Positions 25,806 through 38,807 of a stretch of 64,000 bases of DNA are shown in pieces. The notes under the pieces are model-generated. The model saw nothing but the letters and a program-made list of their open reading frames with translations, searched no databases and was not told where the DNA came from. Position numbers and translations under genes: made by a program. Source of the DNA: Syntrophaceae bacterium (lineage in GTDB: Bacteria > Desulfobacterota > Syntrophia > Syntrophales > UBA5619); NCBI GenBank assembly GCA_003141195.1, contig PLLC01000107.1:16174-80173 (forward strand), in the 5' to 3' direction. Within the stretch, counting starts at the first letter, position 1; each line of letters begins with the position of its first letter.

Positions 25806-27239
25806 TTATTCAGGAGGATGTTGCGCTCCTGCGGGGGTGGGAAGAACCAGTTTCCGGTCGATATAAAGGGGATCCGGGCGCTTGAGGTGATTGAGTTCCA
25901 TGAGGACACGGATTGTCGTTCCGTGTCTTGCGGCGATCGCACCGAGCGTATCGCCCCTTTTCACCCGGTAGGTCGTTCCGGACTTCGAAGCGGGGTCGCG
26001 CTTCCCGGCGACGGTCCCCTTTACCATCCCCTTCTCTTCCCCGACGGAATGATCCCGTGACTTTGGTTCTTCATCCTTTCCGGCGGAAACGGTTACGGCT
26101 GCCGCCGAGAGGGGCGGCAGGAATTCGACGACGGAGCGGGCCACCCCCTCCGCGATCCGCGTCTGAAAGCGGTCGCTCCGCAAAAGCTTTTCCTCTTTTT
26201 CATTGGAGATATAGGCGGTTTCGACCAGAATGGACGGAACCTCCGGGAGCTTGAGCACACGGAAAGGCGCCTCCTGAACGGTCGCGAATTTAAGACGGTT
26301 CGTCGCACCCAGCTCTCTGAGGAGCACACCGCCGAAGGTTCTGGACTGGTTTATGGTATGGGTCTGGAACATGTCGAGGATGATCGGACCGGAGACATCG
26401 CTTCCCTCCCCGTTGGGGACCCCGCCGACGACGTCGGCCAGGTTTTCATTCCTGGCGAGAATCTTCGCCGCCTCGTTGCTCGCCGCCCCGGTAGAGAGAC
26501 TGTAGACCGAACTGCCGGCGGCCTCCCGGTTTCTGGCCGCATCCGCGTGGATGCTCACGAACAGATCCGCCCCGTATTCTCTCGCAATCATGAGCCTTTT
26601 CTTGAAAGATACATAATAGTCGTCATCCCGGGTCAGAAAGGCGCGGTAACCTTCCTTGCCATTCAGCATATCCCGCAGCTTTTTTGCGATCGCCAGCACG
26701 ACATTCTTTTCAAAGGTCCCCTTTTTCCCGACCGCCCCCGGGGCATCGCCCCCGTGACCGGGATCGATCACGACGACCCTGGCCTTGTGCGTAACCTTGA
26801 TCCGTTCCCGGGCCTCGCTCTCCTGTTTTGCGGCATCCGGCAGGACGAGATCCACGACGATCCGGTACGGCTTGTCCTGAAACATTTTTAACTTAAAAAC
26901 CGTAGTCTGGACCGGACCGGGGAGAGACAGTTCCACGCGGACCCCGGAACGTGGACGGGTGGAAAGGGCAACCCCCTCCAGCCCCGGCTTTTTCAGGATC
27001 GTAATGCGGGGAAGATGGGAAGGCAGCGCGGTCTCTTCCAGATCGACGGCAATCATCCTCTCCTCCTTTTCGACGGTGAACGAGACATCCTCGCTCGTGT
27101 CGATCACGACCCGGGTATGGTCCGGGGCCACCCAGTGGCGGATGTTCAGGATCTGGTTCAAGGCCAGGGCGCAGGACGGCCAGCCGGATCCAAAGATCCA
27201 GATGACCAGAATCACGAAGAGCTTTCCTGCACGGGACAT
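25806..27239 (-). CDS. N-acetylmuramoyl-L-alanine amidase (AmiC-type: AMIN domain, Amidase_3, C-terminal LysM)
   Basis: 477 aa with a signal peptide. VVVIDPGHGG...FVSIHADA, and a LysM domain YRVKRGDTLGAIAARHGTTIRVLMELN. Confidence 0.88.
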   Translation of the reverse strand: MSRAGKLFVILVIWIFGSGWPSCALALNQILNIRHWVAPDHTRVVIDTSEDVSFTVEKEERMIAVDLEETALPSHLPRITILKKPGLEGVALSTRPRSGVRVELSLPGPVQTTVFKLKMFQDKPYRIVVDLVLPDAAKQESEARERIKVTHKARVVVIDPGHGGDAPGAVGKKGTFEKNVVLAIAKKLRDMLNGKEGYRAFLTRDDDYYVSFKKRLMIAREYGADLFVSIHADAARNREAAGSSVYSLSTGAASNEAAKILARNENLADVVGGVPNGEGSDVSGPIILDMFQTHTINQSRTFGGVLLRELGATNRLKFATVQEAPFRVLKLPEVPSILVETAYISNEKEEKLLRSDRFQTRIAEGVARSVVEFLPPLSAAAVTVSAGKDEEPKSRDHSVGEEKGMVKGTVAGKRDPASKSGTTYRVKRGDTLGAIAARHGTTIRVLMELNHLKRPDPLYIDRKLVLPTPAGAQHPPE

Positions 27240-27456
27240 ATCCGCATCCTGAAATATTTTGGGAATATGTATCAGCTCCGGCGGACAAATTCAACCCCGA
27301 TTGCGAAAAGAGATTGACATGGCGCACCGTTGATGGCATGGATACCGCCGCCGCGGGATCCGGTGAGTGGCCGCGTGGAAAAAGGATTGAATATTCGCCT
27401 GGCCCGTAGTATGGTTCACCGCCGTCAAGCGTTTGCGCCGGTGAGCGTCTTTCAGG

Positions 27457-27533
27457 GGGCGATTAGCTCAGTTGGATAGAGCGCTGGTCTCCGGAACCAG
27501 AGGCCGTGGGTTCAAGTCCCACATCGCCTACCA
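27457..27533 (+). tRNA. tRNA-Arg (anticodon CCG)
   Basis: Hand-folded cloverleaf: acceptor GGGCGAT/ATCGCCT, D arm GCTC/GAGC, anticodon stem CTGGT/ACCAG with loop CTCCGGA, T arm GTGGG-TTCAAGT-CCCAC, encoded CCA. Confidence 0.93.
27485..27533 (+). repeat. attL: 49-bp direct repeat (3' part of tRNA-Arg)
   Basis: Base-for-base identical to 38759-38807. Confidence 0.9.
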
Positions 27534-27541
27534 AGTAAATC

Positions 27542-27579
27542 AGGGGCTTAACGAATTACAGTTAGCCCCTCTTTTTTTG
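27542..27579 (+). terminator. rho-independent terminator just after tRNA-Arg (supplied by island DNA)
   Basis: AGGGGCTTAAC-gaattaca-GTTAGCCCCT followed by CTTTTTTTG. Confidence 0.7.
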
Positions 27580-27581
27580 TC

Positions 27582-27601
27582 TGCTACCCTATAGCTACCC
27601 T
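27582..27601 (+). repeat. 20-nt arm repeat TGCTACCCTATAGCTACCCT (copy 1; internal tandem GCTACCCT x2)
   Basis: Identical to 38603-38622, in the same orientation. Lies 49 bp inside attL. Confidence 0.8.
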
Positions 27602-27910
27602 TTTTATTTTTTACCCTCAATCACATGCTCATTATTTAGAATGTTAGAAGATGAAATATTATGTATGGATAGGGCCAGGGGGAGGCTCCCCACTGGATTG
27701 ATGGGTTCCCTTCTCCTGTCATTGACAAGTAGCTCGGTGCACACGGCGGGTAAAAATCGGAAACACAGCTATAGTGCACCGTTGCGAAAAAGTGTCCTGA
27801 CCAATATTTGACCTTACAAACACTGTCAAATTAAGTCTCCGTCTCTTTTAACGAGTTCACCTACCAACACTCAGCCCAAGGTGGCAATGGAAGATGAACA
27901 TTACTGAAGG

Positions 27911-27950
27911 AAACAAACGAAAAGGCAGAGCCATTTGACCAGCCCTGCCT
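27911..27950 (-). terminator. rho-independent terminator of the HAF/PEP-CTERM gene
   Basis: Minus strand: AGGCAGGGC-tggtcaaatg-GCTCTGCCT (9 bp, one G-U) followed by TTTTCGTTTGTTT. Confidence 0.65.
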
Positions 27951-27976
27951 TTCGATTTAGTTCTACACCCGGTTTA

Positions 27977-28885
27977 CTAACTCAGCCTTCTCCTGACTCC
28001 TGCAAGGCCCATAAGCCCGAGGCCAAGAAGCAGCATGGTGGTTGGTTCGGCAACATCAAAATAACTGCCCACAACCGCACCGGCATCGTTGATGCCGCGA
28101 GCGGTAGTATAACGAATATTAGTGCCGGGGTAAATAATTTTGTTATACGTATCTCCGCTCATCAGGAAGCCGAAAGTATTGGCACCAGAGCCACTACCAC
28201 CCACAACCATTCCCGCATCATTGATGTCATAGGCGTAAGTATTATGTTCGCCTGGGTAATCGAATGAGGTATACGTATCTCCGGTTTTCAGGAAGCCATG
28301 CGTATAGTGGCCATCATAATAATAACCCACAACAGTACCGGTATCGTTGATGCCATAGGCGAGAGTCCAAACTGCGCCTGGGTAATCGAATGAGGTATAC
28401 GTATCTCCGTTTTTGAGGAAGCCATGCTCGAAACCAGACTTCCCATAAGAACCCACAACGGTACCGACATCGTTGATGCCAAGGGCGGAAGTATTGTGGT
28501 CGCCTGGGTAATCAAATGAGGTCAACGTATCTCCGGTTTTCAGGAAGCCATACCCTATGCCCGAATCACTATAACTGCCCACAATAGTACCGGCATCATT
28601 GATGTCATAGGCTGTGCCAAAACTGCCGGGAAGATCAAGTGATGTATACGTATCTCCGGTTTTCAGGAAGCCATTACAGTTGCTGTAACTGGATTCACAG
28701 TAATAACCCACAACGTTACCGGCATCGTTGATGCCAAAGGCGAGAGTATAAATAGCGCCGGGGTTATTAAGTGAGGTATACGTGTCTCCGCTCTTCAGGA
28801 AACCGTAAAACTCATCAGCATGTGCCGTGGAAAAAAATAGAAACAAAAATATTATGCAACAAATACTTTTTGATAGCGTTTTCAC
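27977..28885 (-). CDS. secreted HAF-family extracellular repeat protein with C-terminal PEP-CTERM sorting signal
   Basis: Start moved to GTG 28885 after GGGGGAGG (MKTLSKSICCIIFLFLFFSTAHA signal peptide). Six ~42-aa repeats (GFLK.GDTYTS.DYPG....A.GINDAG.VVG.Y). C-terminus VAEPTTMLLLGLGLMGLAGVRRRLS. Confidence 0.85.
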   Translation of the reverse strand: MKTLSKSICCIIFLFLFFSTAHADEFYGFLKSGDTYTSLNNPGAIYTLAFGINDAGNVVGYYCESSYSNCNGFLKTGDTYTSLDLPGSFGTAYDINDAGTIVGSYSDSGIGYGFLKTGDTLTSFDYPGDHNTSALGINDVGTVVGSYGKSGFEHGFLKNGDTYTSFDYPGAVWTLAYGINDTGTVVGYYYDGHYTHGFLKTGDTYTSFDYPGEHNTYAYDINDAGMVVGGSGSGANTFGFLMSGDTYNKIIYPGTNIRYTTARGINDAGAVVGSYFDVAEPTTMLLLGLGLMGLAGVRRRLS

Positions 28886-28940
28886 GGATTCCTCCCCCCA
28901 ATTAAATAACAAGATAAAGACCTAATGACTTGTAAAGCCA

Positions 28941-28985
28941 CACAAAAAAATAATAAGCCCCCTTTCATTTAACCCAACAGGGGGC
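28941..28985 (-). terminator. intrinsic-terminator-like hairpin ~55 nt upstream of the HAF gene start (transcript end or leader attenuator)
   Basis: Minus strand: GCCCCCT-gttgggttaaatgaa-AGGGGGC followed by TTATTATTTTTTTGTG. Confidence 0.55.
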
Positions 28986-29927
28986 ATATTTATGGTACTT
29001 TCCGGAAGAGACTCTTCATTGATAACTCCGTATGATGAAGGAACAAATCAACAAAGTCTTGAAAAGAAATACACTAATATCTAAGCACAAAATATGCCAA
29101 ACTATTTATAAATATTTATTATGCTTCGATGTTCCCTGATATATAACGATATAAGCATGTAAAAAATCATTTCTGCTTAATGGAATGAACCCTCTAATGC
29201 CCAAGTGCCATCATTAATCGTAAAGGTATCCGACACAAATGGTGGCCTATAATCATATAATAGCTACAAGCTGCTGTAATTATTGTATTGAACAATTATC
29301 AAAGTTGTAAGTATATCCGACACTATAGAATGTACAAGGCGAGCGTTACCAATCATAATCTTGTAAGTTCCAGCATGGCTGGCATGTGTGGATTTCAGGA
29401 AGTACGCATCAACCGGGTGAACCATAATATGTATGGACAGGGCCGGGGGGAGAAGCCCATTGTATGGATACCTTATTTGGGCATTCATCAGTCCTGCGGT
29501 ACGCACGAAGGCTAAAAAAGGTAACCATGAACTGTACCGTTTACGCTAAAGTAATCGAGACACCACGGAAATGCCTTTGATACGGCGGTAAGGAATCCAT
29601 TACCGCGTAACCCGCAAGGGGGGGGGAATTTTCACCTGAAGTTGATCTCAAATAGGGAGCACTGTAAAGGCAGTTAGGATTCCTCGCCCAAAGATGATGA
29701 ATAATTTAGATTCATCCGGGTCTTGCGTACTTCTCTCTCGTTCACCTGCTAACAAATGATTTTTAGAAGTCTGGATGTTAATGATTATGGAAAGAAAGGG
29801 GGAATATGAATAGTTTCAAAATTCACCCTTTCCCCGTAAATGATCACACACTGCATCCTTCAGAAACACCCGTCCCAGAAATACTGCCATCTGATTTCTA
29901 ATTACCATAAAAGTGCATTTAGGCGGA

Positions 29928-32522
29928 TCAATTAGTTCCGCCAAGCCCAGGCAGCCCATCGAGCATCATGCCGTCTGAGCTACCATTGAGCTGAAAACCG
30001 ACAACATTCCTGTCCGATGAATAGGCAATGTAGGTGGCGCCGCTGATATCCTGCTGCGGGAAGATCGCCTCCGCGAGATTGACCACTTTGGCATGGCCAC
30101 CGACAGGGAGCACCTGGGTGGCCACCGCAGTTCCATTATCATTATAGGCGGTCAGGGTAACGGACGCCGCGCTGTCTTCCGTGTTGACAAAAGCAATACC
30201 GGTCCAGCCGTTCTTCTCGATCTTGGCAAAGACGCCCGTCTTCGCGCCGGTCCCGCCGCTTCCTGCATAGGCCGCAAGCTGGTTGCCGTCGGTAGTGCCG
30301 AAAAGCTCAAAACCGCTGAGGGGCGTCGTGGAGTCTATCTTGAACCACGCCGTTTGAGCGGGGAGGCCGAGTTGCGAAACCGCGCCAATATATTTTCCCT
30401 TCCCCGCTATGGGAAGGGTTGAGGGGGAGAGGGGGGTTCCTGTGGCACTATAGGGCGTGATGGTTATCGTGCACGCCAACTCCGATGGGTTATAAGCCAC
30501 AATACCGGTCCACCAGATATCATCACTGGCCACGTGGGGGTAGTATATGGTCGAGGCGGTGTTGTCTGTAAGGAGGATTCCGTCCAGGTGGTTGTTGCCT
30601 CCGTTATTGCCAAACAGCTCCAGTCCAATGATGCCGCTTGCATTGGTGATCACCGCGGATTGAATGCCCGGCTGAGGTTGGTTATTGAAGAACTCCTGTG
30701 CGATGTCGAAAGCTCTGTGTTGATTCGCATTGAGTGTATAGGGCACGCTGTGGCCATTATTAAAGGTAATGGTCAGTACTTTTGTTGCCGAGGTTGTGTT
30801 CACCAGGCTTACCCCGGTCCACCAGTCAGTGCTTGAGGCTATGTGTGAGATATATATATCCGAGGTGTTCACCTCTTTGACCGCGGGGATTGCCGCCCTA
30901 TAGTACCCTTCTCTGTAAAACTTCGTGTAGCCCTGGACCGTAGCAGAGTCTGTGTCAAACGTTATGTAGCCTATGTTTGTGTGGTTGGAAAACTCATCTG
31001 CAACAGTGATCTGTCTGCGGCCGTGGGCAGAGAGTGTAACAGTCTTGGTCTCTACTAGCTGACCTTCATCACTAAAACTCCTCAGGGCGCCGTTAATTGT
31101 TTGATCGGGGCTGGTATTTATGATGGCTATCTCCGTTTGCCAAGGTAAGCTCGTGGCAATGTGGGGGAAGTAGAGAGCCGTTCCCGCTGTAGCAAAGGTC
31201 GCCGTGACGGTCTTGTCGCCTTCCATTGTTACCTGGCAGGTTGTCGATGTTCCCGAGCAGACTCCGCCAGACCAGATGGCGAAGATGGAGCCAGGGTCCG
31301 GGGTGGCGGTGAGGTTGATGGAAGCACCTTTGATGAAATAATTTGAACAGGTCGCGCCACAGGCAATCCCGGCGGGAGAACTGGATACTGTCCCGGAGCC
31401 GCCGCCGGATTTCAAAATGACCAAATTACCGAATAACCCAGACTGTCCCGACCGCACACAGCGCATTTCGTAGCTACCCGTCCTGGGCTCATATCCGACG
31501 TTGCCGGAGCCGAAGTACACGAGCCACACGAAGTCCATACTGCCAGTGTATGTAGTAGACGACCAATAATTGTATGGCACGGTGTTTGAGGCCAGGAGCG
31601 GATCGATAGCTGGGTTGTAGCGGGAATAATCCACCAGCGATTGCAATTCGTTGCGGTTGGGCAGCCGCCAGTCTGAATATCCGGCAAAAGAAAGATTCTC
31701 ACAGTAAGAAAGCGCGTTTTGCCATTTGTATGTTCCCGGGGGCGTAGCCTTCTGCCACATCAAACCCGACCCGGTGTCTGTTACCGTACCGTCCCCATTG
31801 TCCACCAGGGCGGCAGAGGCAACATTGTCGGCACGAACGGCGCGTGCGCAATAGCCACTCGCCATATAGTAGATGCCGACGTAGCCGCGCCCGAAGTCGA
31901 CGGGCCACGCGCGGCCCAAAAGGCCGGCGTAGGCAGTAGACGACCAACAGGACCACGTGGCATTCGGAAACCAGGCGGTATCGCTGGCCGGATTGTTGAT
32001 ACCGCTGTTGACCAGGGAGGAGAGTTCCTTGATCGTCGGCATCCGCCAGTCGCTGAAGCCGCCGAACTGGGCGTCGTTGATGGCCTTAATGAAGGCTTCC
32101 GTGTCCGTGGCGGCATTACCCGTTCCCGTTCCGCAGGTCCCCTGGTAGCCGCCTTGCGCCGTGGAATTCTTGTCACACCAGGTATATGTGTTGCCCTTAT
32201 CATGTATCCCGCCGTCATCGGTCTTCATCTCCCAGATGAGCCCCGTCACGTTGTCTCGGGTCATGAGCCAGCCGCTTTCCTGCGTGGCGGAATCGGATAG
32301 GGCAACGGCGTTTTGCCCTAACTTGGTGTAAGAACGGTTCGGGCCCTGATACTGAGCGTCCTGACCGTAAAAGGGCTGCCCAGGCGCTGGGCATGAAATC
32401 TCAACGAAGTCGTTATAGCACTTTGTCTGTCCTGTATCGGGAAACGGCCAGGCAAAGACCTCAGGCACGCACAACAGGACCAAAACCGAAATCCATGCCC
32501 ACATCTTCCAGCGAATCTTCAT
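29928..32522 (-). CDS. large secreted multidomain protein (2x DUF1566/Lcl-C-terminal-like, InlB-B-repeat-like module, four ~100-aa unnamed repeats)
   Basis: Start moved to MKIRWKMWAWISVLVLLCVPEVFA (ATG 32522).
- DUF1566-like blocks: GLIWEMK...FSDWRMPTIKELSSLV and GLMWQKA...YSDWRLPNRNELQSLV.
- B-repeat-like module: GGGSGTVSSSPAGIACGATC...VTATFA.
- Repeated Y.PH(I/V)A(S/T)..(D)WWTG motifs. Confidence 0.8.
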   Translation of the reverse strand: MKIRWKMWAWISVLVLLCVPEVFAWPFPDTGQTKCYNDFVEISCPAPGQPFYGQDAQYQGPNRSYTKLGQNAVALSDSATQESGWLMTRDNVTGLIWEMKTDDGGIHDKGNTYTWCDKNSTAQGGYQGTCGTGTGNAATDTEAFIKAINDAQFGGFSDWRMPTIKELSSLVNSGINNPASDTAWFPNATWSCWSSTAYAGLLGRAWPVDFGRGYVGIYYMASGYCARAVRADNVASAALVDNGDGTVTDTGSGLMWQKATPPGTYKWQNALSYCENLSFAGYSDWRLPNRNELQSLVDYSRYNPAIDPLLASNTVPYNYWSSTTYTGSMDFVWLVYFGSGNVGYEPRTGSYEMRCVRSGQSGLFGNLVILKSGGGSGTVSSSPAGIACGATCSNYFIKGASINLTATPDPGSIFAIWSGGVCSGTSTTCQVTMEGDKTVTATFATAGTALYFPHIATSLPWQTEIAIINTSPDQTINGALRSFSDEGQLVETKTVTLSAHGRRQITVADEFSNHTNIGYITFDTDSATVQGYTKFYREGYYRAAIPAVKEVNTSDIYISHIASSTDWWTGVSLVNTTSATKVLTITFNNGHSVPYTLNANQHRAFDIAQEFFNNQPQPGIQSAVITNASGIIGLELFGNNGGNNHLDGILLTDNTASTIYYPHVASDDIWWTGIVAYNPSELACTITITPYSATGTPLSPSTLPIAGKGKYIGAVSQLGLPAQTAWFKIDSTTPLSGFELFGTTDGNQLAAYAGSGGTGAKTGVFAKIEKNGWTGIAFVNTEDSAASVTLTAYNDNGTAVATQVLPVGGHAKVVNLAEAIFPQQDISGATYIAYSSDRNVVGFQLNGSSDGMMLDGLPGLGGTN

Positions 32523-32730
32523 TTCCCCCCTCCCAGCTATTTCAGAATCCAATCCCCATGATGTTGCTATCACCGGTCATGCCTTATTGATTGAATAATG
32601 GGATTTTATCTGGACCCGTCTAAAATTCTATCCAGTCTCCTCCTTCTCAACACACAAAACCCCACACTTTTTAAGAAACGGGGTCTTTATATTCGTTACC
32701 ATCTTTTCACTTCATTTTTAGAGAAATAAA

Positions 32731-33057
32731 TTACTTCCAGTTTCCAGACAATTGCCACCACGTAAGCACATCATTTGTAAAAGTGAGCCGGGCAGAAGGT
32801 CTTTGTACAGGAAGCGTCATGGCCACATTACCAACCGGCATAATTACCGTACCTCCTTCTCCATAAATCCATGTGCATACTCGTGTCTTTCCTGCTTCTG
32901 CGCATTGAGAAGGGGGGCCAAATCTTTGAAGTGCCTCCTCGTAAGACATTTCATTCATACGTGAATTTAACATATCTTGTGTCTCATGCGTTGTTGCACA
33001 TCCATTGAGGCATAAAAAAATTGCAACAAAAAGATAAAATATTGACTTTTTCATCAT
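32731..33057 (-). CDS. small lipoprotein (BamE/SmpA-like size class), function unknown
   Basis: Start moved to MMKKSIFYLFVAIFLCLNGC (lipobox LNGC). 108 aa. Confidence 0.6.
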   Translation of the reverse strand: MMKKSIFYLFVAIFLCLNGCATTHETQDMLNSRMNEMSYEEALQRFGPPSQCAEAGKTRVCTWIYGEGGTVIMPVGNVAMTLPVQRPSARLTFTNDVLTWWQLSGNWK

Positions 33058-33091
33058 CCACTCCTTCAAAACGCAAAACCCCGCACGGAAT

Positions 33092-33367
33092 TCACCGGCA
33101 AACATTTTGCCATCGTCCATTGACCTGCATATACTGGCACCGTGAAGTACCAATTGGCGGAACATTTATTGACGGCAGTGGCTTCAATTCCACTGACGGC
33201 AATGCCGGTATAGGCGGAACATTTATTGACGGCAGGTCATAGGTATTGTCGCAAATGTCTACGTACCGGCAATTGTATCCACCGTCGTCGCATACGTAAG
33301 AACTCCGGCAAACTCCAAAAGCATTTGTAGCAAACAACACAATAACCAAAATAATTAAACTTTTCAT
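33092..33367 (-). CDS. small secreted cysteine-rich protein with internal LPSINVPPI repeat
   Basis: Start moved to MKSLIILVIVLFATNAFG. The mature part has 8 Cys. A 23-nt DNA repeat at 33156-33178 and 33213-33235 encodes the duplicated LPSINVPPI. Confidence 0.55.
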   Translation of the reverse strand: MKSLIILVIVLFATNAFGVCRSSYVCDDGGYNCRYVDICDNTYDLPSINVPPIPALPSVELKPLPSINVPPIGTSRCQYMQVNGRWQNVCR

Positions 33368-33399
33368 CTCTCTATCTCCTTTTCTATTGCTGTTTTTAA

Positions 33400-33687
33400 T
33401 TACCGGCTCTTTAGACATTTAAACAATTGCCGTTCGATTTCCTTCTGAAATTCGTTTAAAAATACAGGGTCTGTCCGTATCTTTGCCAGGGCGCTTTCTG
33501 TAGCCTGCATAAGCCGATCTTCTTCCCTCTGGATCTTTTCAAGCATATCAGCCCGTCTTGCGATCCTGGATATAGTAGGCTGAGAGGTATGAAGTAATTC
33601 GGCAATCTTTCTTTGCGACGTGCCCACAGCCAGCGCATGGGCAAGTATCATTTTTATATGCGGTAAGTTGATTTTGGACTTATTCAT
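33400..33687 (-). CDS. small helix-turn-helix DNA-binding protein
   Basis: 95 aa. GTSQRKIAELLHTSQPTISRIARR is a classic HTH. Confidence 0.65.
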   Translation of the reverse strand: MNKSKINLPHIKMILAHALAVGTSQRKIAELLHTSQPTISRIARRADMLEKIQREEDRLMQATESALAKIRTDPVFLNEFQKEIERQLFKCLKSR

Positions 33688-33794
33688 CGTTTAATTTCCT
33701 CTTTTTGAATCAAAAGTCAATCGAAATGAATAGGAAATTATAATAATTGACTGTTCAGGCGTCACGCACACAGAGACTTTTATCCGGTACGGCA

Positions 33795-34193
33795 TCAATT
33801 CAAGCACGCCTTCAGCATCCGAAGATCGCTTTGAAGGGTTCCCATCCTCGCCCGTGGTCCTTTGGGGCCGGTCTGAATCTCCCGCCGAAAGGATGAAAAG
33901 AATTTCACCGGATCAATGATATGCAGGTGCGGTTCCAGATAGAACGGTGTTTCCGGTGGCTCTAATTTCATGAACCAGTCCATAAGGACTTGAACCTCCG
34001 GGGGCCATACGGCCTTCACATTTGCCCCAGGTTCAACGATCGCCCGGTGGGTGGGTGCTGCTAACCCATTGCTAACCTCAGCCACAGGGGGGGATTGTGC
34101 GGATATTGCTGGTAATTCCCCTATAAAGCCTTTTTTGACTTTTTCTCTCTCTCCTGTGGTAGCCATCGCCTTATATTTTTCAAGTAAATTCAT
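33795..34193 (-). CDS. hypothetical protein (island-encoded)
   Basis: Track ORF 33795-34244, with the start moved to MNLLEKYKAMA (34193) after GGAGAA. I recognise no motif. Confidence 0.45.
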   Translation of the reverse strand: MNLLEKYKAMATTGEREKVKKGFIGELPAISAQSPPVAEVSNGLAAPTHRAIVEPGANVKAVWPPEVQVLMDWFMKLEPPETPFYLEPHLHIIDPVKFFSSFRREIQTGPKGPRARMGTLQSDLRMLKACLN

Positions 34194-34213
34194 TTTCAAT
34201 TCTCCTGAAAAGT

Positions 34214-34229
34214 GTCCGCATAATCCGCA
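34214..34229. promoter_or_regulatory. operator-like motif, inverted copy (GTCCGCATAATCCGCA)
   Basis: Near reverse complement of TGCGGATATTGCGGAC at 34264-34279, 34 bp away. Lies upstream of ORF 33795-34193. Confidence 0.5.
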
Positions 34230-34263
34230 AAACCCCTTTGGCAATCTTCCTGCCGGGGGATTC

Positions 34264-34284
34264 TGCGGATATTGCGGACGGTTT
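34264..34284. promoter_or_regulatory. operator-like 21-mer TGCGGATATTGCGGACGGTTT (copy 1)
   Basis: Identical to 38509-38529, which lies upstream of the integrase start. A partial third copy TGCGGATATTGC is at 34098-34109. Confidence 0.55.
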
Positions 34285-34285
34285 C

Positions 34286-36700
34286 TTATACATTTGAGAG
34301 AACTTTCGGGTTCACTTCATACCCCTGTGACTCGGGCCGCCCCGTTCTTCTCCCATAATCAACCTTGCCCACTTCCCGGATATATCCTCGCTCGATCAAG
34401 ATCATTATGCCGGGCTGAATTTTATCCATAGACGCGCAGCTTGTGTGAGAGAACAAATCGCGCCCCTTGAAGCTCTCCGGCCTGTGTCGCTTGACGTAGG
34501 AGAGAATTTTCCGGGCCACGGCGAGATGAGCATCCTCTTTCATAATCCCGAAAGCTGCTTTGGCGTGTTCGGTAAAGTACCCGCCCAGATAGCAGGCTTT
34601 TGATAGCGATTCGCCGGAGATAGGCTTTCCGATCCCTTCGGGGCCATGCTCCGCGAAATGCAGGAGTCCAGAGATACGGGCCACGGCTCCGGGTAACTTG
34701 CTACCCCAATCAACAAGGTGCTCAAGCTCACCTCCAGGACGCAGGAGGGATTCAACATCGGCATAAAAGCCGTTCCAGATCGTTTGAGCATCGAGGGCCA
34801 GCCTCAATTCGTGCCGCCCGGCGACTTCCATTAGGGCCACAATCAATCTGTGGTAGGCATCCTTGACGTTCACAGGAACAGGGGAAGTTTGTAAGATGCG
34901 GTATCCTGCCTTTGACTGACACCAAGCATATAAGAACCGGGCCGACAGTCCCCGCCCCCGAAATTCTGAATTGCGTCCGATTTCTTCAAGCACATCGGGT
35001 TGAACCGCCAACCCCAGGGTGAGGGCCGGGTGGAGCATGGACTGTGATCCCCGCCCTATCCTGCCACTGCTCCATGCGTCGCCGGTGTGAGCTTTCAGAA
35101 TTAGGTCAATGTTCGTGTTGCCCTTACTGTTATAAAGCCCCCCAATGATCTTGAAAAACCCGCCTTCCGCCGAAAGTATCGCCGCCCGTTCGTCATTGTC
35201 GGCCATTGTCTCCCCGAGCTTTTCCAGTGTGATATTGTCCACAAGATATTCCGGGACCGGGGGGACTGGATTCTCCTCAATCGTTTTCAGGAGGTCGGAG
35301 CAGTTCCGGAGAAGCGTATCGCGTTCCACTGGATCATCCGTATCCGCTGCCTTTTTTTCCAGTCTATCACGACGCTTTTCCAATACCCGCTTGCGGTTTT
35401 CCGCCTCACGGATAATGGGGATCATGGCATTCTGACGGGCTTTCTGGTGAGCATAGAGGGGGGCCGCAATCTGGCCTACAGTTTCGGATTTTCGATTCCC
35501 AGAACCCAGTACGGAGAGGAAATAGTGGTTCCCCTGCTCTGTGTGGGAATCAAGAACAATTCTCAACCGTGCGCCGATTGCCGTCGATAAAGCCGCTAAC
35601 ATCATACAGCCGGGGAGTCCCGGATCGACCTGACAGCTTACCGCAACTGCCGCAACCATTTGACCACAGGGGCCGGGGATCGCCTCGACCGGGAAGAAGG
35701 GGAGGAGGCTGTAGTCATTGAACGGAACAGGCTCCGGCCAATCATCGGGGGAAGGCTTCTCTTTCGTCTCTGCCCCCTCCTGTGACTGACGCTCCTCCCC
35801 GAAGTGCGCCTTGCATCCCTCGACAGCCTTCTGGATTGTCGCCTCGCCATAGGTGCATGGCCCATGTCGGACATCCCATTTTTTGCGGTATAAACCGGAC
35901 TCCCGGAAAGCTGCATCTATTGCCGCAGGATCGCCGTCCAGCCAGAAGGCAAGGTGCGAACACAGGCTGAGGTCCCCCTCACTCTGTGAAGGATAGGCCG
36001 AGTAATCGCCTTTCCACAAACGCTCGATCTCTGCACCATTAACGCTTTGGAAGGCTTTTTCCAGCAGCGGGTTCCGCCGGCCACCCGTAGATGTATTCGT
36101 CCGGACCGTCCTCTCCTGCTCGGAGGGCTTCTCCGTGGCTCCGAATACCGCCTTGTAAAAAGCATCAACCTCCATCTGCCGGGGTTCGATTGTTCGGGGG
36201 AATCCGTCCAGAACGTGGCCTGTCACGGTCACATATCGGCCAGACTGATAAACCTCAATCGGCCCTTTCCGCTTACCGTCCACGGGCAACTTGCTTTTGA
36301 GAAATACCCTGATCCCCTTACCTGAGGGGCTCACTTCCGTGTAAGAATTCAAGCTCCTGATATGGTCGGCAACAACCGGCAAAACCATGTTCAAGCCAGC
36401 GGATATTTCTGGATCAATCTCATCAAAGGCTGGGCATCTGCAATTATCAACATCCAAACCGACAATCCCTCCCTCCTGTGTTAAAACAAAACCGATTCCG
36501 TCATAACGTGGCGCCGCCTCTGCCACCGTAGAGAAGGGGCTCCATGTTAAAGGATTATTCGACTCTGCCAGCTTCCCGTTAGGCTGATAGGGGGGCTTTG
36601 TCGGCTTGCCCCCTTCCTTCCGGGGAACGGATTTCCAATTAACCCACTGACGGTATTGCTTAAGTTCATCCGGGATATTCTCGAAGATAGGGCTTAGCAT
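34286..36700 (-). CDS. replication protein: bifunctional primase-polymerase (PrimPol) N-domain + PriCT-2-like + DUF3987 (helicase-like)
   Basis: Start moved to MLSPIFENIPDELKQYRQWVNW (ATG 36700, 4 nt after the xis stop). GIGFVL...GLDVDNC...SPSGKGIRVF, then LCSHLAFWLDGDPAAIDAAFRESGLYRKKWD, and a long DUF3987-like C-terminal half. Confidence 0.8.
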   Translation of the reverse strand: MLSPIFENIPDELKQYRQWVNWKSVPRKEGGKPTKPPYQPNGKLAESNNPLTWSPFSTVAEAAPRYDGIGFVLTQEGGIVGLDVDNCRCPAFDEIDPEISAGLNMVLPVVADHIRSLNSYTEVSPSGKGIRVFLKSKLPVDGKRKGPIEVYQSGRYVTVTGHVLDGFPRTIEPRQMEVDAFYKAVFGATEKPSEQERTVRTNTSTGGRRNPLLEKAFQSVNGAEIERLWKGDYSAYPSQSEGDLSLCSHLAFWLDGDPAAIDAAFRESGLYRKKWDVRHGPCTYGEATIQKAVEGCKAHFGEERQSQEGAETKEKPSPDDWPEPVPFNDYSLLPFFPVEAIPGPCGQMVAAVAVSCQVDPGLPGCMMLAALSTAIGARLRIVLDSHTEQGNHYFLSVLGSGNRKSETVGQIAAPLYAHQKARQNAMIPIIREAENRKRVLEKRRDRLEKKAADTDDPVERDTLLRNCSDLLKTIEENPVPPVPEYLVDNITLEKLGETMADNDERAAILSAEGGFFKIIGGLYNSKGNTNIDLILKAHTGDAWSSGRIGRGSQSMLHPALTLGLAVQPDVLEEIGRNSEFRGRGLSARFLYAWCQSKAGYRILQTSPVPVNVKDAYHRLIVALMEVAGRHELRLALDAQTIWNGFYADVESLLRPGGELEHLVDWGSKLPGAVARISGLLHFAEHGPEGIGKPISGESLSKACYLGGYFTEHAKAAFGIMKEDAHLAVARKILSYVKRHRPESFKGRDLFSHTSCASMDKIQPGIMILIERGYIREVGKVDYGRRTGRPESQGYEVNPKVLSNV

Positions 36701-36704
36701 CGGC

Positions 36705-36923
36705 TCACCCCCTCTCCGGCAGGGAATCACGGGTGAGGACAGGGTGGGACCCCAACCAAGCTTCCAAATCTTCTTGCCGGTAGAGAACCTTCCCTCCAAC
36801 CTTGAAGTAGCGGCAGCCTTCCTTCCTGCACCTTTGATTTGCAAGATTTCCGATCGATAGGCAGGGGTAAAATTCTTTTATTTGTCTAATTGATAAATAA
36901 GTGGTGAAATTTTGATTGTTCAT
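36705..36923 (-). CDS. excisionase/AlpA-family HTH DNA-binding protein
   Basis: 72 aa. YLSIRQIKEFYP.LSIGNLANQRCRKEGCRYFKVGGKVLYRQEDLEAWL fits the excisionase-type HTH. Confidence 0.75.
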   Translation of the reverse strand: MNNQNFTTYLSIRQIKEFYPCLSIGNLANQRCRKEGCRYFKVGGKVLYRQEDLEAWLGSHPVLTRDSLPERG

Positions 36924-37325
36924 CGTAAACCTCCTAAATATTTTAGTTATTTAGGCTGTTCACGACCGTGGTGGGCTCGGGACAAGCAAAAGCACACATG
37001 AGTGTGTGCATTTTCCTCGCCTCAAGTTATCGGCTCTACTGTGATGAGTGGGTGGGGTTTTTAGATCGCTACGGCGGGTCACTATGGTGACTTTACGGCC
37101 GAGCGCATAAAAAAACAACAACTCGCTCTTTCCGAGCGCCCCGAGGGATCGGGATAGCTGCCCCGCGGCTCACTTAGGCCGCGAGAAGCCTCACGGGGAA
37201 TCCCCCCATGATAGTCTTAATATAGTAATTTTCTTTCAGTTTGTCAAGAAAAGAATCACAAACTTTCTTCTATATTAATAGTAACAAGAAATTCTTGTTT
37301 TTGTTAAGAAAACCGTCATCAACAA

Positions 37326-38483
37326 TCACACTTGATAGTCGGCAATCATGCTGACCACGTTCCTCTCCTGTGATTGATTAAAGCCGGTTTCCATCAGCTT
37401 GACGGCCTTCCGCTTCACGTCAGGGCTCAGGTGCGAATATCTCTGAACCATCGCCATTTGCCTATGGCCTGACAGTTCTGCAATCACATGGAGGGGAGTC
37501 CCCTGCATCGCCAGCCAGGAGCAGAATGTGTGTCTCGTGGTATGAAAAACAACCTTTTGCCGGTTGTCGCTGATCCCCTTATTGAATTCCAGAGCGTCAA
37601 CCGTCCGGTCGAAACTGTGGCTTACCTCTCGGATAGGCTCCCCCTTGCTATTCGTGAATACCAGATCGCCGGGGGTTTCTGGTTTCCTCTGCATAAGGAT
37701 TTCTTTCACAGGGGTGGTCATAAAGGCTTTCCGTGGGTACTTGTTTTTTGTGTCATCGACGTTGATAAGCTCTTGGTCGAAGTCCAGGTCATGGCCTCTC
37801 AGAGAGAATATCTCGGACGCCCTCATGCCTGTATGGAGGCCGATCATAGTTATGTCATGCCACAGAGGGGACCTATCCTTTAGACGTTCAAGCAATAGCC
37901 CCGCTTCCTCTGTGGTCAACCATCGTTCACGCTGGTTCTGTGGGACTGGCAATTTAACAAATTTGATAGGATTCGGGCCACTGTATAAATCCCAAGCGAC
38001 AGCCTTGTTAAAAATGGAACGGAACAGCACCAGGATGTGTTTTACACTTTGAGGTGAAAGTTCCTTGCTGGAGATGGCTGCTTTTAATCGCTCCAAGTCA
38101 AATGCGCTAATTTCATTCATTCGTTTCCCGGAAAAAAATTCTTTCATATGCTTATCATAGCGGAAGCGTTCCAAACTCCCGCCTCTTGTAAGGTTCGTCT
38201 CAGCCCACAAGAAATACTTATCCGCCACATCTGTGAAGAGAGGGGCCTTGACTTTATCTTTCGGTAGTTCCTCGCCGAACCGTATCTGCTTCATTCTCTG
38301 GGCGCGAATATCGGCAGCCAGCTTTGCACTATATCCTTCAGACAGCCAGCCTATCTTTTCCCATATCTTCCGCCCATCCTTCTTGTATGCAATGTCATAA
38401 CACAGGTTGGGCTTCCCCTTGAATATCTCCTCTGTGGACTCCCGCTGATAGACTCCCTTATGGATTCGGCTTCGTTTGCTCAT
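37326..38483 (-). CDS. tyrosine-type phage integrase
   Basis: 385 aa. HTGMRASE (Arg), HTTRHTFCSWLAMQG (H-x-x-R), LGHRQMAMVQRYSHL (Tyr). Confidence 0.92.
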   Translation of the reverse strand: MSKRSRIHKGVYQRESTEEIFKGKPNLCYDIAYKKDGRKIWEKIGWLSEGYSAKLAADIRAQRMKQIRFGEELPKDKVKAPLFTDVADKYFLWAETNLTRGGSLERFRYDKHMKEFFSGKRMNEISAFDLERLKAAISSKELSPQSVKHILVLFRSIFNKAVAWDLYSGPNPIKFVKLPVPQNQRERWLTTEEAGLLLERLKDRSPLWHDITMIGLHTGMRASEIFSLRGHDLDFDQELINVDDTKNKYPRKAFMTTPVKEILMQRKPETPGDLVFTNSKGEPIREVSHSFDRTVDALEFNKGISDNRQKVVFHTTRHTFCSWLAMQGTPLHVIAELSGHRQMAMVQRYSHLSPDVKRKAVKLMETGFNQSQERNVVSMIADYQV

Positions 38484-38508
38484 GGTCTCCCCCTTCCTGA
38501 AATAGTTT

Positions 38509-38529
38509 TGCGGATATTGCGGACGGTTT
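38509..38529. promoter_or_regulatory. operator-like 21-mer TGCGGATATTGCGGACGGTTT (copy 2), 26-46 nt upstream of the integrase ATG
   Basis: Identical to 34264-34284. Confidence 0.55.
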
Positions 38530-38602
38530 TCCGGTATATTGGAAAATTATTTATGGCCTTTCCCTGACCTCTGTGATAATAAAAATATTCAATAGACTCC
38601 CG

Positions 38603-38622
38603 TGCTACCCTATAGCTACCCT
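38603..38622 (+). repeat. 20-nt arm repeat TGCTACCCTATAGCTACCCT (copy 2)
   Basis: Identical to 27582-27601. Lies 137 bp inside attR. Confidence 0.8.
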
Positions 38623-38637
38623 CTTGGGTTAAAACGG

Positions 38638-38743
38638 GTGATTTTCAGTGAAAAGAACCAAAAAGGATTGCTACCAAAAACAGGCACAAACACCATATAT
38701 TATATGATTAGTTATGTCAAGTGATTTTTAGTGAAAAAGGCCA
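38638..38743 (+). repeat. pair of 23-nt direct repeats in the integrase-proximal arm
   Basis: GTGATTTTCAGTGAAAAGAACCA (38638-38660) and GTGATTTTTAGTGAAAAAGGCCA (38721-38743). Confidence 0.65.
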
Positions 38744-38758
38744 GAAGATGATATTCAA

Positions 38759-38807
38759 TGGTCTCCGGAACCAGAGGCCGTGGGTTCAAGTCCCACATCG
38801 CCTACCA
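38759..38807 (+). repeat. attR: 49-bp direct repeat (displaced 3' fragment of tRNA-Arg)
   Basis: Identical to 27485-27533. No 5' half of a tRNA precedes it. Confidence 0.9.

Follow-up and report, generated by a model that had tools for sequence, protein, structure and literature searches.

A duplicated non-coding island end as the probable relic of recombination in a tRNA-integrated island of an uncultured Syntrophales bacterium

Among the described systems closest to the locus reported here are integrative elements at tRNA genes, where tandem accretion and decay are well described (PMC5704250), as well as the minimalist chromosomal islands inducible by phages, known as PICMIs, and other satellites resembling phage-inducible chromosomal islands (PICI-like satellites; PMC10803314). 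At the level of single sites, the locus may also be compared with lambda/P4-type attP arms and with the boundaries of integron attC or dif modules. It lies in a 64,000-nucleotide stretch of a Syntrophaceae bacterium (contig PLLC01000107.1 of assembly GCA_003141195.1, positions 16,174 to 80,173), referred to below as the window, and was found to be an integrative island of 11.3 kb with exact borders (27534-38807) in the 3' end of a tRNA-Arg(CCG) gene. The island contains two related non-coding blocks, A and B, which a sequence-only reading of the window had tied to two secreted-protein genes (a HAF/PEP-CTERM gene and an Lcl_C gene). The tie proved to be to the tRNA-proximal end of the integrated island. 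Block A is the tRNA-proximal terminal region of the island, ~130 nt inside attL, and block B is probably the relic of a duplicated end of this kind, left at a recombination junction.

As in the tandem accretions of cis-mobilizable elements (CIMEs), integrative mobilizable elements (IMEs) and integrative and conjugative elements (ICEs) (PMC5704250, citing Pavlovic et al. 2004), two related ends, A and B, are found in direct orientation at one tRNA target with one att site, and B is homologous to the tRNA-adjacent end of a related element (locus L014). One element would likewise have been reduced to a remnant, and cargo would have been gained by the joining of elements. Classical accretions, however, keep an internal att site between the partners, of which none is left here, and the remnant in this case is a non-coding end of ~190 nt, the event being deduced by comparison.

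The island has the hallmarks of an element integrated into a tRNA gene by a tyrosine integrase, namely a terminal integrase gene, a direct repeat of the tRNA 3' end and an empty site in relatives. The empty site was observed in L040 and L041, island-free Syntrophales relatives reached via the AmiC protein (86% identical), in which tRNA-Arg is followed directly by the sequence that stands from 38808 onwards in the window. The G+C content of the island is 41–56%, compared with ~60% in its flanks. A weak third Rfam "tRNA" (29.8 bits, 38738-38804) corresponds to the attR copy of the tRNA-Arg 3' half and is no gene. The tRNA-side end is a conserved non-coding region made up of arm-type repeats, a terminal module (M1), an anchor of 24–29 nt and ~110 more nt. 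The att cores, this end and the junction are composed as follows.

27457..27533, plus strand: tRNA-Arg(CCG), the integration target (ARAGORN; Rfam, 70.3 bits)
27485-27533, plus strand: attL core, the 3' 49 nt of the tRNA (perfect direct repeat with 38759-38807)
38759..38807, plus strand: attR core, a copy of the 3' 49 nt of tRNA-Arg and the end of the island (49/49 nt identity)
27542..27578, plus strand: island-supplied hairpin AGGGGCT...AGCCCCT with a T-run, terminator-like, right after the tRNA (read from the sequence)
27583..27601, plus strand: tandem GCTACCCT words, presumed arm-type integrase site (twin pair at 38604-38622 in the other arm)
27602..27664, plus strand: terminal module M1, TTTTTATTTTTTACCCTCAATCACATGCTCATTATTT...GATGAAATATTATG, with a sigma-70-like TTTAGA-16-TATTAT at 27635-27662 (near-identical in L014 and L038; present in L015 and L016)
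27656..27800, plus strand: block A core, with anchor 1 (27656-27684), a variable patch (27686-27745) and anchors 2-3 (nhmmer against B and L014; covariance model (CM), 123 bits; orthologue in L038, where the patch is replaced)
27801..27919, plus strand: distal part of block A as earlier delimited (anchor 4), without supported homology to block B (27745-27872 identical in L038, 27873-27910 replaced there)
27920..27953, minus strand: intrinsic terminator of the HAF/PEP-CTERM gene, a 14-bp stem with a T-run (terminator scan; anchor 5 of block A is its 3' half)
28886..29415, no strand: AT-rich upstream region of the HAF gene, whose right end, 29415, is the recombination junction (homology to L038 stops at 29415; homology of B to L014 starts at 29417)
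29417..29609, plus strand: block B core, with the last ~16 nt of M1 (GGTGAACCATAATATG), anchor 1 (29424-29452), anchors 2-3 and a hairpin (nhmmer against L014, E 7e-32; CM, 143 bits)
29610..29927, no strand: rest of block B as earlier delimited (anchors 4-5), the 3' flank of the Lcl_C gene, without supported homology to A (weak M1-like match at 29733-29800, E 0.1)

Anchor 1, which the sequence-only reading had placed at 27661 and 29429, is indeed shared by the two blocks, with 26 of 29 positions identical between 27656-27684 and 29424-29452. The degenerate 24-mer describing it occurs at these two places only in the 64 kb, and in none of the shuffled sequences. The best local alignment scored 44 compared with 21 ± 2.3 for dinucleotide shuffles, and nhmmer aligned 27656-27792 with 29424-29550 (E 3e-8 to 6e-8). 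The stretch after anchor 1, taken alone, is marginal by strict local alignment (22/500 shuffles as good); its homology is accepted because of the nhmmer result and of L014, which acts as a bridge by matching both A (27582-27794, E 2e-25) and B (29417-29609, E 7e-32). The collinearity proposed for anchors 2-3 is borne out in this way. Anchors 4-5 (27800-27976 against 29560-29927) are at chance level, with 96 of 500 dinucleotide shuffles scoring as well. Chance similarity is ruled out for anchors 1-3 and accepted for anchors 4-5, and the homologous unit, given as 307 and 479 nt before, is limited by these alignments to ~135 nt, or up to ~190 nt for B and its closest relative L014. G-runs of 5–7 occur in every copy of the anchor, their length differing between copies (L014 +1). 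A likeness of the anchor to a tRNA fragment or T-arm holds for copy A only and was dropped.

Homologous ends were identified by three routes. A metagenome scan for the anchor returned L014 and L015 as true relatives, the others being chance matches; a genome scan for the motif just upstream of the anchor led to L016, a Syntrophaceae metagenome-assembled genome (MAG); and the AmiC route led to L038, a sister strain. M1 is common to block A, L014, L015, L016 and L038. The L014 element starts ~70 nt past a tRNA-Leu(CAA) and presents, in order, a hairpin with a T-run, tandem GTCCCGC words, a T-rich run, M1, the anchor and a B-like stretch. Its M1 is ~95% identical to that of the window (hand count), and the stretch after its anchor resembles block B at ~80% identity and continues across a hairpin, CGGTAA-N8-TTACCG, that is followed by a T-run. 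In L015 both M1 and the anchor are shared and the sequence is divergent beyond them, while L016 shares M1 only and diverges directly after ATATTATG. The M1 of L016 (905-1150) stands without a nearby tRNA, ~150 nt upstream of a gene of the OmpA family that shares its strand, and may be either a stranded island end or a working promoter. A more distant island, L030, lies in a tRNA-Arg(CCT) and is laid out in the same way, with a hairpin, tandem arm words and a T-rich run after the tRNA.

The block was found in none of the related islands reached via primase homologues (63–70% identity; L018-L025 and L030-L033), and in none of the IMG/VR loci L034-L037. The anchor pattern had no match in GTDB genomes or IMG/VR, the M1, M3 and M4 patterns had no exact match in IMG/VR, and blastn of block A against phage and plasmid collections returned nothing. 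All contigs with the exact HAF or Lcl_C proteins show the same arrangement, and the ancestral state was not recovered among them.

The pair GCTACCCT-N3-GCTACCCT occurs once in each arm of the island (27583-27601 and 38604-38622). The words vary between islands, being GTCCCGC in L014 (1814-1832) and L030 (reverse complement, ~14975-14956 and ~14858-14838) and TTACCGC in L015 (reverse complement, ~2462-2445) and L016 (917-935), while the adjoining M1 stays conserved. This arrangement resembles lambda/P4-type attP arms, in that tandem short words lie in both arms, ~50–150 nt from the core, and differ by target, with a conserved module directly beside them. It is unlike such arms in that the anchor and M1 are common to islands with different arm words, and the words, which are presumed to be arm-type integrase sites, are candidates identified by their sequence. 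The hairpin at 27542-27578 was passed over by the terminator scan, its loop being longer than 8 nt.

The comparison with L038 is informative at both edges of the HAF segment. On the tRNA side, identity between the window and L038 is 100% from the chromosome up to and including M1; divergence sets in at the anchor and continues inward, where identical and replaced patches alternate; those at 27686-27745 (~60 nt) and 27873-27910 (~40 nt) are fully replaced in L038. The alternation shows frequent recombination at this edge, for which a dedicated site is not needed. That the two replaced patches might be co-varying halves of a helix was considered and rejected, as their complementarity is no better than that of shuffles. 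L038 shares the tRNA/AmiC flank of the window and carries both an orthologue of block A and a PEP-CTERM gene of HAF-like type, and on the far side it has no block B. Its similarity to the window ends exactly at 29415, and its next 106 nt match none of the compared sequences. This stop, taken with the left edge of B, indicates that 27534-29415 behaves as one module with two different right-hand neighbours.

Block B itself retains just GGTGAACCATAATATG of M1, as the M1 profile matches it from profile position 79 onward only. It is closer to L014 (~80% identical) than to A (~60%; hand counts and nhmmer scores). GGTGAA is present in both B and L014 where A has GATGAA, and TGTATGGA occurs twice, 31 nt apart, in B and in L014. 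The hairpin of block B, GCGGTAA-N8-TTACCGC (29585-29606), is without a T-run; a G-run of 8–9 lies just past it (29619-29627). The truncation of M1 from position 79 and the greater nearness of B to L014 than to A are the grounds on which B is regarded as the relic of an end. In L005 a 9-nt strain deletion (29411-29419, AACCGGGTG, between AACC repeats) falls exactly on the junction at the edge of block B, and contig L006 ends on the same junction, at 29414. The suggestion that the blocks are a recombination site marking cargo cassettes is upheld to the extent that B marks where two cargo modules were joined by recombination; nothing points to a site-specific cassette site of a dedicated kind.

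Block B would accordingly derive from the end of a resident "b-type" island, one of the L014 type whose terminal cargo would be the Lcl_C gene. On the tRNA side it would have been joined by a related end segment, the "a-type" (27534-29415), comprising M1, block A, the HAF/PEP-CTERM gene and its upstream region; the a-type segment is also present in the sister strain L038. In the simplest form of this join, a second related island would have integrated in tandem into the same tRNA, and a subsequent deletion would have eliminated the core genes of the incoming island along with its integrase, the internal copy of att and the greater part of the resident M1. The repeat would be a duplicated island end, an ordinary mark of island mosaicism, with A as its functional copy and B as the relic. 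What appeared to be an RNA motif behind secreted-protein genes would become a dated record of cargo-gene gain by a small integrase/primase island of uncultured Syntrophales, in which the relic end places the join to within a base or two. With the conserved terminal module (arm words, M1 and anchor), ends of islands of this family can be looked for in metagenomes.

A more tentative part of the explanation, considered rather unlikely, concerns a promoter and a small RNA. In the 600 nt of L014 which were scanned, the sole promoter-like site is TTTAGA-16-TATTAT, whose -10 box TATTAT forms the left part of the anchor region, and the sole terminator-like site is the M4 hairpin with its T-run, both on the plus strand. 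The same promoter-like site is present at 27635-27662 of the window. The terminal region may hold an inward-facing sigma-70-like promoter, with an expected start within the anchor. In L014, as an intact b-type end, the promoter and the hairpin with T-run would delimit a non-coding unit of ~175 nt convergent with the terminal cargo gene. In block A the promoter would have been kept, with the unit running to the bidirectional terminator at 27920-27953. Block B, from which the promoter and the T-run have both been lost, is probably inert. On the plus strand, and on that strand only, a consensus fold of B and L014 shows an excess of compensatory pairs, 6 against 2.0 ± 1.2 for column-shuffled alignments (2/300). 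It is conceivable, though rather unlikely, that the island end encodes a hitherto undescribed small non-coding RNA, transcribed inward from an att-arm promoter, of ~175 nt in the b-type and up to ~290 nt in block A, convergent with the terminal cargo gene. If this were true, an island-borne regulator would exist in two allelic forms, the a-type and the b-type, acting for example on the neighbouring cargo gene; the RNA could alternatively control read-through into the tRNA or the integrase after excision. Such a case would exemplify an att arm with a gene for a regulatory RNA built into it.

Several observations weigh against the proposed history and against the RNA. Neither an internal copy of the att core nor a second integrase was found in the island, so that tandem integration is deduced from the end-relic alone and the later deletion must be assumed. 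A single recombination of two islands, homologous on the tRNA/M1 side and illegitimate at 29415, would give the same product, and the two routes are inseparable. Homologous ends number five among the matches listed, and L014, L015 and L038 are short or truncated contigs, from which a shared integrase/primase family is not implied. With regard to the RNA, the excess of compensatory pairs between B and L014 comes from two sequences and from one of six tests, the folding-energy z-scores give no thermodynamic signal, and the a-type copies have no structure in common with the b-type ones. As a 9/12 match to the consensus, the promoter is no more frequent than in shuffles, and L015 and L016 gave no such site when scanned.

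The stem-loop which had been proposed for both blocks was examined in the homologous copies. Inverted repeats are present as described, CGGTGCAC/GTGCACCG at 27735-42 and 27774-81 in block A and CGGTAC/GTACCG at 29497-502 and 29534-39 in block B, each literally enclosing 31 nt. The equal size of the loops, taken to be conserved, is an artefact of counting an 8-bp stem in A and a 6-bp stem in B; once the copies are aligned by homology, the helix measures 47 nt in A and 43 nt in B from one outer arm end to the other, with a 4-nt gap in the B loop. The helix had also been held to be preserved despite sequence change. This comes down to one compensatory pair between A and B, G-C to A-U, and the helix is broken in both further copies: that pair is U-U in L014, and in L038 the 5' arm lies within the replaced patch, which gives two mismatches. 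The 81% of cells that pair over the four sequences is a level reached by shuffles as well, and 241–278 of 500 shuffles attained the covariation observed. Minimum free energy (MFE) z-scores ranged from -1.5 to +0.9 in three copies and are not significant; the MFE folds differ, the A/B hairpin being present in that of A alone, and the consensus fold of the four sequences is worse than column-shuffled controls. In a scan against Rfam 15, only tRNAs passed gathering and nothing relevant was obtained at E <= 10 within 27530-29930. A covariance model, built as the sequence-only reading had suggested, matched A, B, L014 and L038, with no others in the window and 380 kb of related loci. As judged by these comparisons of sequence, the blocks are not proven to be a structured RNA.

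The view of the blocks as a structured RNA, that is, a 3' untranslated region (3'-UTR) element or a small RNA (sRNA) with a size-conserved stem-loop tied to the secreted-protein genes, is considered improbable. The inverted repeats in both copies and their one compensatory change agree with it, as do a specific register (81% of cells pair, compared with 15–43% when the partner is slid) and G-U pairs which favour the plus strand, but the pairing, covariation and folding controls just described do not distinguish the copies from shuffles. Furthermore, block A lies beyond the HAF gene's own terminator and so outside the 3' UTR of that gene, and in L016 the cargo gene that goes with the terminal module is oriented the opposite way. 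A protein product fares no better. No reading frame is kept across the five homologues, as the sequence-only reading had held in finding no credible conserved ORF, and all three plus-strand frames are open over 13–50 codons in one copy or another. A small protein of 30–50 aa that begins MDRA(R/G)G... at the anchor's second ATG, such as a small membrane peptide or a type I toxin stabilising the island, would fit a frame that is open for 27–48 codons after that ATG in all five copies, net A/B indels in multiples of three (6 and 3 nt), and GTG/GTA/GTT wobble at one conserved valine codon. However, L014 has a +1 frameshift in the G-run, L038 lacks that ATG, the peptides of all copies are alike in the first six residues only, the other two frames are open over similar lengths, and the second ATG has no Shine-Dalgarno sequence upstream. 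Substitutions between B and L014 are spread evenly over the codon positions (7/7/8, hand count), and the two remain just as similar beyond the stop codon. The profile made from the best candidate frame had no match in 5.8 billion protein clusters, and an exhaustive HMMER search of 1.84 billion representatives returned one unrelated repetitive protein only. With neither frame nor start kept and no relatives, the small protein or toxin was ruled out as very improbable. A decayed known gene was likewise rejected, as no sign of one was obtained at the Pfam level and a 144-aa ORF of L015 merely enters the anchor and belongs to no family. It is concluded from the sequence comparisons that the blocks are non-coding paralogues.

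Two further readings treat the region as DNA. The main rival to a promoter or sRNA function is that the terminal region, including the anchor, is a cis-acting site without an RNA role, either an extended attP arm (for integrase, excisionase and host bending proteins) or a replication or packaging site of the excised island; B would still be a relic. Such a site is regarded as unlikely. Its position 50–150 nt from the att core beside arm-type repeats is in its favour, together with an anchor which is conserved at the nucleotide level in four ends (A, B, L014 and L015) with different downstream sequences, the lack of both an ORF and an RNA stability signal, and the doubled TGTATGGA of B and L014. 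In contrast, L016 keeps M1 without the anchor, and of the anchor copies B alone has dyad symmetry. From island to island the arm words change and the anchor stays, and it is therefore not integrase-specific. IMG/VR contains no exact match to the anchor, M1, M3 or M4, and hence nothing that links them to a phage cos or pac site. It has also been considered that the anchor is a site-specific cassette site, integron-like or dif-module-like, and that the HAF cassette entered by a Campbell-type insertion which left an anchor on each side. As at integron attC or dif-module boundaries, short conserved direct repeats flank a single-gene module, the anchor copies enclosing the 1768-nt HAF segment. Similarity also switches at or beside the anchor, at the left edge of B and at the divergence points of L016 and L015; the window and L038 turn there from 100% identity to divergence, and between A and L014 M1 is ~95% identical and the distal part ~60%. 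However, homologous recombination by itself would be expected to produce such switches where a conserved backbone ends. The right junction of L038 is likewise at 29415, with no anchor beyond it and thus no second site. The one recombinase of the island has the tRNA anticodon-stem region as its core, with no relation to the anchor; neither an integron integrase nor an Xer-type site structure is present, and four of the five anchor copies have no inverted-repeat core or dyad. A cassette site is therefore held to be highly improbable.

The genes of the island are all on the minus strand. From the far end their order is integrase, a small helix-turn-helix (HTH) gene, an NrS-1-type primase/DUF3987 gene, small ORFs and four cargo genes, the last two of which encode the Lcl_C (DUF1566) protein and then the HAF/PEP-CTERM protein.

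37326..38483, minus strand: tyrosine integrase (Pfam PF00589, E 3.9e-26)
34286..36700, minus strand: replication gene, NrS-1-type primase-polymerase HBD and DUF3987 (Pfam PF13148, E 3.8e-88; 451 homologues)
29928..32522, minus strand: Lcl_C (DUF1566) / InlB B-repeat protein gene, 864 aa (Pfam; exact product on public contigs)
27977..28885, minus strand: HAF-repeat (DUF3466) / PEP-CTERM gene, 302 aa, with six 126-nt repeats (Pfam; exact product on 18 public contigs)

In its small size (11 kb), tyrosine integrase, adjacent small HTH gene and DUF3987 primase, the island is similar to PICMIs and PICI-like satellites (PMC10803314), with which it also shares site-specific integration, large non-coding stretches and cargo opposite the integrase end. 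In the SatelliteFinder model, PICMIs are recognized by int, AlpA (PF05930 or PF12728), a DUF3987/DUF5906 primase and Fis (PF02954) (PMC10803314). The integrase and DUF3987 components are found in the island (PF00589 and PF13148), and no match to the Fis regulator PF02954 was detected among the scanned island ORFs. For AlpA, the 72-aa HTH ORF beside the integrase gives a weak match to HTH_17 (PF12728, 19.7 bits), below the Pfam cut-off of 27. Unlike in PICMIs, the host belongs to Syntrophales and not to Vibrio, and the cargo consists of secreted or PEP-CTERM proteins. Induction and packaging by a helper phage are features of PICMIs, while the present island is known from sequence alone.

The six tandem repeats of the HAF/PEP-CTERM gene are of 126 nt (42 aa) each. 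L028 is without exactly 252 nt, or two repeats, and the L038 version is 241 aa in length, which indicates that the number of HAF repeats varies between strains. The heptamer GTTCACC (or its complement), which is similar to a P4 iteron, was counted 17 times in the window, 7 of these within 27075-30867; among these are 27855 and 29740, both at anchor 4, as well as 29416 on the junction, and the observation was made post hoc. A 24-nt repeat, TT(C/T)TGCGGATATTGCGGACGGTTT, is present at 38506-38529, directly 5' of the integrase start, and at 34261-34284, between the primase stop and a 132-aa gene, with a weaker copy at 34095-34118; it is a candidate operator or shared leader of island genes. Finally, a 26-nt direct repeat (33153-33178 and 33210-33235, 57 nt apart) is located within a 91-aa cargo ORF.

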